In this document: in pieces, positions 4,767 through 18,900 of the stretch
Numbering within the stretch: the stretch's first letter is position 1
How the letters are laid out: every line of letters starts with the position of its first letter
Source of the DNA: a virus
Virus record (IMG/VR): IMGVR_UViG_3300037264_004923
Span: 1 to 64,000 of that record
Direction: 5' to 3' (one strand)
Length of the DNA: 64,000 nt
Notes under the pieces: model-generated
The model's input: the letters and a program-made list of their open reading frames with translations, nothing else
What the model was told of the DNA's origin: nothing
Database searches by the model: none
Position numbers and translations under genes: made by a program

Positions 4767-4841
4767 GGTAGCCGTAGTGTAATGGTGGCACGTCAGGTTG
4801 TGACCCTGAAAGAATGGGATCGTTCCCCGTCGGTTACCCCA
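4767..4841 (+). tRNA. tRNA-His(GTG) with G-1
   Basis: 8-bp acceptor GGTAGCCG/CGGTTACC, TTGTGAC loop, atypical T-loop ATCGTTC, CCA. Confidence 0.88.
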
Positions 4842-5986: not shown

Positions 5987-6273
5987 GCGCTCTTAGCTCA
6001 ATTGGCAGAGCAGCGGGCTTCAAATAGGAGCCCTTATAGGGAAACCCATAAGGTGAATCCGGTCAAATTCGGGGAACCCCTACAGGAGGCGTCCTAAGGC
6101 AACCCCGAGCCAAGCCCAGACATGGGAAGGTGTAGAGACTTGACGGCCGGGACCTAAAGGCGAAAGCCCATGGTCGTGAGAAAGTCCAGACCAGCAAGCC
6201 GTACAGGTGGCTTGGGAAACCAAGTGCTGGTAAGTTAACCCGTCGGTTGAAGGTTCGACTCCTTCAGGGCGCA
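5987..6273 (+). tRNA. tRNA-Lys(TTT) interrupted by a group I intron
   Basis: 5' exon 5987-6020 (GCGCTCT...GCGGG CT T) and 3' exon 6235-6273 (TT AA CCCGT...AGGGCGC A) join into a canonical cloverleaf with anticodon TTT and A73. Confidence 0.88.
6021..6234 (+). ncRNA. Self-splicing group I intron (IC3-like, 214 nt, no ORF)
   Basis: P1 GGGCTT/GAGCCC with U.G at the splice site; core motifs CAAATTCGGGGAA, GGCAACCCCGAGCCAAGC, AAGGTGTAGAGACT, AAAGTCCAG; terminal G. Confidence 0.92.
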
Positions 6274-6293: not shown

Positions 6294-6365
6294 AGGCCGT
6301 GAGCCGGCGCTCAAGCGGATCTCCAAAATCTGTTGTCCGAGGATCGACACCTCGACGGCCTGCCA
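6294..6365 (+). tRNA. Non-canonical tRNA with CCA anticodon (Trp), tRNA-Pyl-like fold
   Basis: AGGCCGT/ACGGCCT acceptor, G73, CCA end; D stem GAGC/GCTC with 4-nt loop CGGC and no linker; 6-7 bp anticodon stem; loop CTCCAAA; T arm CGAGG-ATCGACA-CCTCG. Confidence 0.8.
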
Positions 6366-6378
6366 CATAGGAGTACTC

Positions 6379-6525
6379 ATGCAAATCGAAGATCTCGGTA
6401 GAAGTTTGGCAACAATTGTTGTTTGGTCCGCGCCAGCATTTTCTTGTTGGGCGACAGGTTCCCCAGCGGTCGCGTGGGTGTTCCTTCTCTCCTTCATCGC
6501 TACACCAATGATCTGGAGAGACTGA
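6379..6525 (+). CDS. Small hydrophobic (membrane) protein
   Basis: AGGAG RBS, 48 aa, hydrophobic. Confidence 0.55.
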   Translation: MQIEDLGRSLATIVVWSAPAFSCWATGSPAVAWVFLLSFIATPMIWRD

Positions 6526-6529
6526 TTAT

Positions 6530-6605
6530 ACGCGCGTAGCTCAGTGGTAGAGCACTGCGTTTACATCGCAGGTTGTCGCTGGTTCAATCCCAGTCGCGCG
6601 TACCA
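6530..6605 (+). tRNA. tRNA-Val(TAC)
   Basis: ACGCGCG/CGCGCGT acceptor, TTTACAT loop, CCA. Confidence 0.93.
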
Positions 6606-7147: not shown

Positions 7148-7224
7148 GCCCCGGTAGCTCAACGGTTAGAGCAGCGATCTTATTAATCGACGGTTGGTGG
7201 GTTCAAATCCTCCCCGGGGTACCA
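7148..7224 (+). tRNA. tRNA-Ile(TAT)
   Basis: GCCCCGG/CCGGGGT acceptor, CGAT/ATCG stem with loop CTTATTA (anticodon TAT, U at 37), A73 plus CCA. Confidence 0.8.
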
Positions 7225-15943: not shown

Positions 15944-18900
15944 TTGCTGATTCCTAACTTCCCTTCGTTCCTTCAGGAAACTGCTAAGGAACACCTCCGT
16001 CGATTCAACAGCCGTATGAAGGCAGGCGGTCGCGCCCTAGACATGGCCGTCCAAGTTCGTCAGGACGAGGTGAACACCTTCCTGACTTTTCGCAGTGCCC
16101 GCCAAGGTTCTCTGAACGGTGAAACCGGAACGCTTGTCGTTCCTCGCCCTCGGAAGAACGAGTTTGGCAACTGGGTCATCGGCGATCGGAACGATCGTGC
16201 GCTGTGCCCCCTCATGATCGTGCTGAACGGACAGCCGCAACACGTGACTTACGAGGGGATGATCGGCACTCTCCTCTCTTCCAACGTCGAAGAGCTCTTC
16301 CCCGATCAGGGCAAGCGCAACTATTTCGACAAGATCCTGTGGGCCTTTTCCAAGGGGCGGGGTCGTCTCGCAGTTGGTATGTGTCAGCGGTTTCTGAACC
16401 AGACTATCTTCAACTCGCTTCCTCTCAGCGGCACCTCGATGCAGGATTGGGCGATGAATCATCGTCTGATGATCTTCGATCCGATCTTCGAGACTCTTCG
16501 CCCCGAAGAAAAGCTGGCGTATCAGAAGCGGAAGAATGAGCTGCTCTTCCCGTGGTCGTCCATCGGTCTGTCTGACGGTGCGGCGGCGGTGAAGAACTAC
16601 ATCCTCCAAGCGGACCTTCGCAAGTATACGGCATTCGGTAACCGGCATCACAATCCGATCCGCAATCTGTACTCCACGCTTGGCATGAAGGGAGAGGAGA
16701 AGCCTTTGGTCATCTCCAAGTCCATGTCGGGCTTGGAGGAGCAGGGGATCAGCCGCGGTGGTTGGAACTGGATGACCGTGTTCCTGGACCTGCCGTTGAA
16801 CTTCGAGGATCAGATCCTCGTTTCGCGCCGGCACGCTGGGAAGAAGGTGACGGACCATCGGAGCTTCATCGTGTTCGGCGAGGAATCGGCGGCTCTTGGG
16901 GATAACATCCTCAAGGATCGCGTCCTCGGCATGAACGAAGACGAGACACCTGTCGTGTTCGACATCGATTGTGACCACGCCAAGGTGATCGAGATCAAGG
17001 ACGGGGTTGTTCCGTTCGATGGCAATGATCAGCCGGTTCGTATCGTGACGCTCGAAGTGGTCTATTCCTTCAAGGAAGGATTCAAGATCACCAACCAGCA
17101 CGGCAATAAGGGCATCGTCATCTTGGAAGACCTAGGAACGGTTCACGATCCGAAGCGGGGTGAAATCCCGATCGACGTGATCGTTTCGGCTCGCTCGGTC
17201 CAGAAGCGCAAGAATTTCGGACAGATCTTGGAGGCCCTGGCCACTATGATCCACGGTACCGAAAAGCGCTTCATCGTTCCTGACGACATTGAGGTGTCCC
17301 AAGAACAGGTGGAGAAGTCTCTCGTGAGTGCGGGCTATTCCAAGGAGGGATCCTCGAAGGTATCCACTTCGTGGGGTGAGTTCGACACGCTCTGCGGCTG
17401 GATCCACTGGGGTGTCACCAAAACCCCCGAAGAACAGTTGTGGGAGAAGCGAGACACTTGGACGGAGAACCAGCGTGGACTTCGTACTCGAGGCAACAAG
17501 CTCTCGACCGTGGAACTCAAGGCGCTGACGACTCTGTTCGGCGCTGGTTCCAAGGTGGTGGGAGAGATCCTCTCCTACCAACAGGGACTCGGTGAAGTCC
17601 AGGAGTTGCTCCAGATCCTCGATAGCCTGCGCGGGAACGTTCGGGAAGAACTTCCTGTCGTGAACCCCGAGTCTTTCGTATACATCCCCACCGGTATGGG
17701 CACTTTCCATTCCATGGACGGTCTGGCTGGTACGCTGGCCGACGAGCATATGTATCCGCAGGGTTGCTACCTCCAACTACCCATAACTCTCCGCATGGAG
17801 GTTCCTCTGGAACGTTGGAAGAACCCCATCCGAGAAGGCATCGTGGGTGAAGAGAATGCGTACGGAAGCGAGGACTGCAAGGTGTACGAGGTCGATCGTC
17901 TCTTGATTCCGAGCTTCTCCCTTCGACAGCCGTGGCGACATCCGACTGGCAAGTTTGGCCTGTCCGAAGTGACCACGGTTCTGAACCAAGTCTTGGAGAA
18001 CATCGATCTGCTTCAGCGCGGGGAGATCAAGCCCGCCCAGCTTTCTGCCCTCATCTACAAGTATCTACACAACATTGGTCAGGGTCTCTCTACCAAGAGT
18101 GGAAAGATCAGCTCCTATCTCATGTCTGTCCGGTATCCGCACTCCTCGAAGGCGACCGCTGTTCTGGGTCGCAATCTGGAGGCGAACTGGGTGGAGATCC
18201 ACAAGGACATGGCAAAGGATCTGAGCGTCCAGACAGGAGACTACGTCTTGGTAGAGCGCTTTCCATGCCTCGGTTTCATGTCCGTACGCATCCAACGTGT
18301 GCGGGTGACCGATGATGTGGAGTGCAAGTACGTGATCCGGGTCAGCGGTAACTCGCTGGTCTCCATGAACTTGGACTTCGACGGAGACGTGATCTATGTG
18401 ATGAGCTTCCATACGGAAGCAGCCAAGGAAGAACTGCAGGCCAATTTCCACAATCCTCACCCGAGGATCAAGGAGGTTCTGGATACGATGAACGGGAAGA
18501 AGGTTCCCATCACGCGTTCCATGAACCTTCAGGAGATGGACCTGAAGAGCTTCGCACCGCTGACCCCCGAGGAACACGCAGATCTGAACGAGATCTCTCT
18601 TGCAGTCAAGCTGTATACGGGTCCTGTCATCGCTCTCTGCTACAACCTGATGCGTATTGCCGAAGGAAGCTTCAGCTACCAAGATCGTGAAGCCCACATC
18701 AATATCGAGGTCTTCCTCGATAAGGTCGGGAACTCGGTCTTCTCGCAGAAGCACGGTATTCGAAGCCTCAGGGAAGAGTGTACGGAGGCGGTGTGTCTTG
18801 CGGATCTGCAGGCAATGGTGAAGCTGGGATTCCCCGAGAAGGAATCCGCGAAGTTGTGCCAAGCCGTTCGAACTGCGGCTGCAAAGCTGGGAGTTCGGAA

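Follow-up and report, generated by a model that had tools for sequence, protein, structure and literature searches.

A probable tRNA-Trp(CCA) of a jumbo phage built on a compact, tRNA-Pyl-like core

Introduction

Bacterial translation is thought to employ tRNAs with a nearly invariant core, and the compact core has hitherto been deemed peculiar to pyrrolysine tRNAs and some mitochondrial tRNAs. EF-Tu binds the acceptor and T arms of tRNA. The frame of M. alvus tRNA-Pyl is accepted by bacterial ribosomes, as genetic code expansion with this tRNA attests. The tRNA-Pyl of the M. alvus class has no linker between acceptor and D stems, a 4-nt D loop, a long anticodon stem and a 3-nt variable loop, and its synthetase, PylRS, is blind to the anticodon (PMC7609411). 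The tRNA-Pyl identity set can moreover be transplanted onto a core of the mitochondrial tRNA-Ser(UCN) type (PMC7609411).

The bacterial Trp identity set comprises G73, A1-U72, G2-C71, G3-C70 and the CCA anticodon, with G4-C69 and G5-C68 as determinants in B. subtilis (PMC9976931). In the account of the E. coli TrpRS-tRNA co-crystal, the enzyme is described as contacting only the anticodon triplet, the discriminator G73 and, through the backbone, acceptor pairs 1-5; that paper nowhere uses the words D-arm, D-loop or D-stem (PMC12135181).

Here we describe a phage gene that combines these two sets of features. The window analysed, a 64,000-nt stretch, opens a 101.8-kb IMG/VR virus fragment (G000) estimated to be 34% complete. 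Targeted full-text literature searching found no description of such compact phage tRNAs.

Results

A 72-nt tRNA gene without the canonical core

The gene at 6294-6365 (all positions below are on the plus strand) is a compact-core tRNA-Trp(CCA) gene of 72 nt, encoded CCA included. Its acceptor stem (5' strand 6294-6300, paired with 6355-6361) has seven Watson-Crick pairs and starts with A1-U72, G2-C71 and G3-C70. The D arm (6301-6312), a 4-bp stem closed by the 4-nt loop CGGC, abuts the acceptor stem, and a single spacer A separates the D stem from the anticodon arm (6314-6334). The latter has a 7-bp stem with two G-U pairs and a 7-nt loop, CUCCAAA (6321-6327), in which U33 and the purine at 37 are present; the anticodon CCA (6323-6325) reads UGG (Trp). 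A 3-nt variable loop (6335-6337), a T arm with a 5-bp stem and the loop AUCGACA (6338-6354; A54, U55, C56, A58), and the discriminator G73 with the encoded CCA end (6362-6365) complete the gene. The canonical core features (U8, two connectors, a 7-11-nt D loop, a 5-bp anticodon stem and T54) are absent.

This sequence and layout had been proposed in a first-pass annotation of the window, and both were borne out: the letters are identical, and the minimum free energy fold (ViennaRNA) is the proposed cloverleaf. The absence of a linker, the 4-nt D loop and G73 were confirmed, and the ranges given for the anticodon stem and the variable loop narrow to 7 bp and 3 nt. The fold has an energy of -28.5 kcal/mol, accounts for 43% of the ensemble and leaves all 23 pairs intact; with a z-score of about -2 the candidate is comparably well defined to eleven ordinary tRNAs of G000 (-0.9 to -3.9). 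When a strict descriptor of the layout was run over both strands of 2.45 Mb of phage DNA, it matched this site alone, against 0.33 matches per shuffled replicate, and the layout is therefore beyond chance. A54 is not unique to the compact gene within G000, since the tRNA-His at 4768-4841 also has it; the T loop of that tRNA, AUCGUUC, combines A54 with U58, a swapped 54-58 pair.

Detection by tRNA gene finders

The first reading had warned that standard tRNA finders may miss this gene, and the Rfam tRNA model and default ARAGORN both do. RF00005 gave no match in a 600-nt search even at E<=10, and ARAGORN at default settings did not call the candidate; with a 90% threshold or in mitochondrial mode, ARAGORN called tRNA-Trp(cca) at exactly 6294-6365. 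We used three covariance models, R1 built from the candidate alone, R2 from 17 natural pylT genes only, and R3 from the compact family described below, the candidate being among its building sequences. Scoring against tRNA and tRNA-Pyl covariance models, which had been proposed as a check, thus gave no match to RF00005 and 51.0 bits with the pylT-only R2. All other compact members that were checked also fell under the Rfam tRNA gathering score.

Similarity searches at the nucleotide level returned little. An exact 19-mer from the anticodon arm of the candidate had 0 matches in viral contigs, and blastn with the candidate and two family members against 50,697 GenBank phages gave chance-level matches, bar one case: the canonical tRNA-Trp of Microbacterium phages, in which the likeness is confined to the anticodon arm. 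In these cultured Microbacterium phages (SuMoo, L395:376-448) the anticodon loop of the annotated canonical tRNA-Trp is closed by an A31-C39 mismatch, and the same mismatch is seen in the compact Trp genes of two viral records, L373 and L385.

The array slot and its alleles in sister phages

With the 1061-aa RNA polymerase of G000 as query, two complete relatives of ~296-298 kb were obtained, G001 (32 tRNAs) and G002 (29 tRNAs). Judged from these two genomes, G000 is a jumbo phage of ~300 kb. They were the sole returns of IMG/VR alignment searches with the RNA polymerase and with the NMNAT-NUDIX protein. A metagenome scan gave 34 relatives, among which L208 alone reached the tRNA array, beginning just downstream of the Trp slot. 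A neighbouring 171-aa protein had no relatives among viral contigs, and a NAMPT search yielded 80 loci at 54-62% identity, none with a homologue of the compact tRNA; a 17-mer from the group I intron core was far too common to be informative. Many NAMPT-bearing phage contigs (L004, L013, L014, L015, L020, L038, L046, L054 and L072) have a CUA (amber) tRNA, called by ARAGORN at the 90% threshold, within a few kb of NAMPT.

The array order Pro-His-Cys-Lys(UUU)-[Trp]-Val is syntenic across G000, G001 and G002. The upstream neighbour that marks the slot is a tRNA-Lys(UUU) with a group I intron (5987-6273; Rfam Intron_gpI, 54.2 bits), as in G001. Downstream lie a small ORF (6379-6525), with a ribosome-binding site that begins 9 nt past the CCA end, and a canonical tRNA-Val(UAC) (6530-6605; ARAGORN, Rfam). 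A comparable ribosome-binding site and ORF are found 3' of Trp in G001 and 3' of Lys in G002.

The tRNA-Lys intron is ~210 nt long and inserted after U34 (window 5987-6273; L085:9468-9759 in G001), while the Lys(ttt) gene in the same slot of G002 (L086:15160-15236) is intronless. ARAGORN -i miscalls the intron-bearing gene as Leu(caa) in G000 and Glu(ttc) in G001, and in G000 this gene encodes TCA instead of CCA 3' of the discriminator. The slot after Val also varies, with tRNA-Ile(UAU) in G000 (7148-7224), G002 (L086:17834-17910) and L208 (738-812) and a CAU tRNA in G001 (L085:12675-12751), giving two ways of reading AUA in one phage family.

In G001 the Trp slot, after the intron-bearing tRNA-Lys, is occupied by a canonical 78-nt tRNA-Trp (L085:9835-9912; Rfam, 63 bits), the best global match to the candidate of all 77 tRNAs in the relatives. 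At 69% identity, the Trp pair lies within the range for orthologous tRNAs of G000 and G001 (65-78%). Eleven stem pairs are altered on both sides and one on a single side, without any pair being broken. Beyond the slot, the two genes have in common the anticodon loop, A1-U72, G2-C71, G3-C70, G73 and the encoded CCA; pairs 4-7 all differ. The candidate is six nt shorter and lacks the U8/A9 connector (its A9 lies inside the D stem), its D loop has 4 nt instead of 10, its anticodon stem is two pairs longer, its variable loop has 3 rather than 5 nt, and it has A54 where the G001 gene has T54.

No tRNA-Trp was found anywhere in G002, in which the ribosome-binding site and small ORF come straight after tRNA-Lys. 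Since this sister phage has none, this lineage can dispense with the gene. Gly and Val tRNAs were likewise not found in G002. A tRNA of that phage at L086:1116-1192 (Rfam, 53.7 bits) has an 8-nt anticodon loop, CUUUCAAU (ARAGORN 'ttca'), with G1-C72 and U73, and could be an expanded-loop decoder or a damaged gene.

A family of compact tRNAs in other viral records

The first further members were obtained with a pattern that fixes the D and T loops, which the candidate shares with tRNA-Pyl (see below). Scanning IMG/VR for both loops, correctly spaced, returned 80 matches, 12 of which (11 distinct sequences) fold as a compact cloverleaf; the anticodon is CCA in four of the distinct sequences (L373, L350, L385, L335), CAU in four and UUG in three. 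Loop-independent searches, with R3 on 56 viral records and R2 on tRNA arrays, uncovered further compact tRNAs whose loops differ from the pattern. These included two Trp(CCA)/G73 genes, in L401 (G005) and at L356:710-777, as well as Ile(UAU), Arg(UCU), CAU, Gln(CUG) and Cys(GCA) genes. Counting the candidate, there are seven compact Trp(CCA) genes in seven viral records; G73 is present in all seven, four of which open with an A-U pair, two with G-U and one with G-C.

The shared fold is well supported by covariation. Across a 14-sequence family the paired share of cells is 95.9%, compared with 60.8% for shuffled sequences and 40-49% for slid controls. Of the 23 pairs, 20 are altered on both sides; the search pattern itself fixed the three invariant ones. 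Much the same is seen when the seven Trp genes are taken by themselves (95.7% paired versus 68.2% in shuffles and 33-46% in slid controls; 20/23 pairs altered on both sides). All seven acceptor pairs covary in the family, as do three of the four D-stem pairs, with 100% of D-stem cells paired. The candidate matches R3 over its full length at 78.4 bits, and covariation backs all four of its helices. By these comparisons, the compact phage tRNAs are a conserved family with one frame and several anticodons.

Several compact genes exactly occupy the gap of a missing isoacceptor in arrays of 24 to 35 tRNA genes. In L373 (35 tRNAs) and L350 (30 tRNAs) two called tRNAs leave a ~70-nt gap into which the compact Trp gene fits exactly, and neither record (31% and 74% complete) yielded a further tRNA-Trp. 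In the L356 array the UUG place is occupied by compact Gln genes. In L322 two compact Gln tRNAs, with CUG and UUG anticodons (1527-1595 and 1597-1667), are neighbours separated by 1 nt. A compact tRNA-Cys(GCA)-like gene to which default ARAGORN is blind is found at 1501-1572 of three related phage arrays (L304, L305 and L306; strands -, - and +), with the D arm GCAG-AGGG-CUGC and no connector.

Could the candidate be a decaying pseudogene, that is, a gene like that of G001 which has partly lost its D arm and no longer works? The canonical Trp in the same slot of G001, the complete loss of tRNA-Trp from G002 and the missing Rfam match would all agree with this. However, all 23 pairs are intact, the changes are coordinated as in the working tRNA-Pyl, six further compact CCA/G73 genes with strong covariation occur in other viral records, and in L373 and L350 the compact gene is the sole Trp found. 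We thus regard decay as very improbable indeed. The first-pass annotation had taken homologs with a normal D arm as a sign of a decayed tRNA-Trp; such a homolog exists in form, in G001, but the decay that it was to signify is contradicted by the conserved compact family.

The family also bears on the origin of the G000 allele. The L373 gene is identical to the candidate over the 3' 25 nt and agrees at 51/69 positions overall, and remodelling in situ of a G001-like gene as the sole origin was dropped on account of the former. As the L373 gene is at least as near the candidate as the canonical gene of G001, the compact allele of G000 may have replaced the canonical one by recombination and not been remodelled in place.

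Two complete phages with terminal repeats, G054 (37 kb) and G055 (60.5 kb), each have a compact CCA/G73 tRNA (G054:20029-20097, from L385; G055:17414-17482, from L335) and no tRNA over the Rfam cut-off. A terminator-like hairpin comes after each gene, and neither encodes the CCA end. In G055 (73% GC) the DUF3800-IX RNA motif (RF02968, 60.1 bits; L335:1920-1985, G055 ~17348-17413) ends one base before the compact tRNA. ORF statistics are uninformative in both genomes (71-73% GC).

These two phages raise the question of whether the compact RNAs decode at all, or are tRNA-shaped RNAs with another role, for instance in priming, in regulation or as decoys for the tRNA-cutting nucleases of host defence. 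A lone Trp-type gene in each is odd for codon supply, and in G055 it directly adjoins an RNA motif. In the arrays, by contrast, the compact gene sits exactly at the missing Trp isoacceptor place, G73 and the CCA anticodon are conserved in 7/7 genes, and in their acceptor, T and anticodon stems the genes match decoding tRNAs. A non-decoding role is therefore unlikely, and the evidence favours a decoding tRNA.

Likeness to tRNA-Pyl

Natural pylT genes were fetched with a fixed 19-base anticodon-arm word, which gave 56 genomic loci and 26 sequence variants. The compact geometry that had been attributed to Methanomassiliicoccales tRNA-Pyl agrees with these 26 sequences and with the published description (PMC7609411). 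The acceptor (7 bp), D (4 bp) and T (5 bp) stems of the candidate agree in length with those of the Methanomassiliicoccales (delta-N) tRNA-Pyl, and both tRNAs have no connector, one spacer A, a 4-nt D loop, a long anticodon stem, a 3-nt variable loop and G73. The core of the candidate lies within the tRNA-Pyl range (0-1 connector bases, 4-5 nt in the D loop, at least 6 bp in the anticodon stem and 3 nt in the variable loop). The resemblance proved stronger than first noted and extends to the letters: both have the D loop CGGC, and the T loop AUCGACA is the commonest variant of the fetched pylT genes and occurs in 0 of 400 distinct canonical phage tRNAs. The T arms are identical at 15/17 positions, and the anticodon loops differ at position 35 alone.

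The covariance models match reciprocally (51-57 bits). R2 hits the candidate over its full length at 51.0 bits (E 1.3e-8) with no non-standard pairs; the next best of the other phage tRNAs scored 24.6 bits, and the canonical Trp of G001 19.2 bits. Conversely, R1 run against archaeal pylT loci returned the pylT genes at 52-57 bits as its sole matches there. Since compact phage tRNAs with other loops exist, the identical loops and reciprocal matches exceed what would be expected from shape alone. Outside the common loops, identity between candidate and pylT is 23/52, no higher than that to compact phage Gln tRNAs.

The two also differ. The anticodon is CCA in the candidate and CUA in tRNA-Pyl; the first pair is A1-U72, as against G1-C72 in 26/26 pylT variants; the anticodon stem is fully paired over 7 bp, whereas that of tRNA-Pyl has 6 bp and a bulge; and the carrier is a phage, with a presumably bacterial host, rather than an archaeon, with no pylS near the gene. 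A search for pylS and trpS had been suggested at the outset. Neither the G000 fragment nor its two complete relatives, G001 and G002, yielded a pylS match (TIGR02367), the Methanosarcina control being positive, and the same three sequences yielded no trpS (TrpRS/TyrRS-type domain).

These data speak to the idea that the gene is a tRNA-Pyl, or a direct derivative with a changed anticodon, still served by a PylRS-type enzyme. In its favour are the frame, both loops and the 51-57-bit matches, together with the blindness of PylRS to the anticodon (PMC7609411). Against it stand the absence of PylS from the G000 fragment, G001 and G002 and the A1-U72 pair. Furthermore, the bacterial Trp marks are kept in all compact CCA genes, CAU, UUG, CUG, UAU and UCU versions of the frame take ordinary isoacceptor places in arrays, and Pyl at UGG would harm the whole proteome. 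We consider service by a PylRS-type enzyme scarcely credible.

Tryptophan identity and decoding

A1-U72, G73 and CCA had been named as bacterial TrpRS identity elements, in agreement with the published set (PMC9976931), and the candidate has that set in full: G73, A1-U72, G2-C71, G3-C70 and the CCA anticodon. The B. subtilis determinants G4-C69 and G5-C68 are absent from it (C4-G69 and C5-G68 instead) and both present in the Trp gene of G001; E. coli TrpRS touches these two pairs through the backbone (PMC12135181). The candidate and the G001 gene agree completely in pairs 1-3, G73 and the anticodon loop. Because the TrpRS contacts described are confined to the anticodon and acceptor arm, the rebuilt D region should not block charging. 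The charging enzyme would be that of the host, since no trpS was found in the phage sequences.

G000 uses the standard code, with ~13 TGG per 1000 codons. All three stop codons terminate long ORFs, TGA doing so in 51 of 149. We considered whether the rebuilt hinge might extend the reading range of the CCA anticodon to UGA, for programmed readthrough, in the manner of the Hirsh G24A, A9C or 4-bp-stem variants of tRNA-Trp. Positions 9-12, 23-26 and 44-45 of tRNA-Trp govern UGA readthrough (PMC13092985), and this is exactly the region rebuilt in the candidate. Yet its anticodon stem is longer (7 bp) and not shorter (4 bp), TGA is a regular terminator of long ORFs, and the true reading frames of genes common with G001 and G002 showed no in-frame TGA. 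UGA reading is accordingly very improbable. Genome-wide TGA recoding was rejected, the apparent in-frame TGAs being off-frame or antisense alignments.

Altogether, the sequence evidence suggests that 6294-6365 is most probably a functional elongator tRNA-Trp(CCA) of a jumbo phage on a compact core, charged by the bacterial-type TrpRS of the host. The first-pass annotation had left two readings side by side, a structurally novel tRNA-Trp and a Pyl-derived tRNA. The former is supported by the slot, the identity marks, the six homologues and the covariation; the latter, as a Pyl system, is opposed by the CCA anticodon and by the lack of PylS in the G000 fragment and its two complete relatives.

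Discussion

We propose the following course of events for the candidate. Its compact core is without the two connector bases, and has an anticodon stem extended to 7 bp and a variable loop of just 3 nt; the D loop, reduced to CGGC, retains a GG with which U55-C56 of the T loop could pair. The gene would be transcribed together with the tRNA array. A bacterial-type TrpRS of the host would then charge the tRNA with Trp, presumably reading G73, the acceptor end and the anticodon and leaving the D arm unread. The acceptor and T arms, which are intact, would be available to EF-Tu, and the charged tRNA would decode UGG on the ribosome. Bacterial TrpRS, EF-Tu, RNase P and ribosomes thus probably accept a compact body. 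As to its benefit, our preferred guess is that the compact body may go unrecognised by host nucleases directed at tRNA or by host modification enzymes. Since one sister phage has a canonical and the other a compact allele in a single slot, they form a natural pair for probing such benefits, for example nuclease escape.

Because Rfam and default ARAGORN miss compact genes, phage tRNA counts are underestimates, and arrays wrongly seem to be without Trp, Gln or Met. More generally, we find a sense-codon tRNA with bacterial Trp marks on a Pyl-type frame, loop sequences included, with conserved relatives in several phage lineages. Compact phage tRNAs may therefore serve as natural scaffolds for genetic-code engineering and offer a fresh angle on the origin of tRNA-Pyl.

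How, then, does the candidate stand to the known compact tRNAs? The core of mammalian mitochondrial tRNA-Ser(UCN) is similar by description, with a short connector, a small D loop, an extended anticodon stem and a short variable region; unlike the candidate, it is organellar and has one connector base and other loops. The frame coincides with that of delta-N tRNA-Pyl (PMC7609411), the identity and probable function with those of bacterial tRNA-Trp. Either common descent with pylT or convergence may account for the likeness: descent is favoured by the identical D and T loops and the 51-57-bit matches, while the 23/52 identity outside the loops speaks against it. One tentative explanation, which we hold to be possible but rather doubtful, is that delta-N tRNA-Pyl and the compact phage tRNAs derive from one ancestral 'chassis', one or the other having arisen when a compact tRNA passed between mobile elements and cells, with its identity then switched via the anticodon and the first acceptor pairs. 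If so, phages would represent a natural library of Pyl-type scaffolds already fitted to bacterial synthetases and ribosomes.
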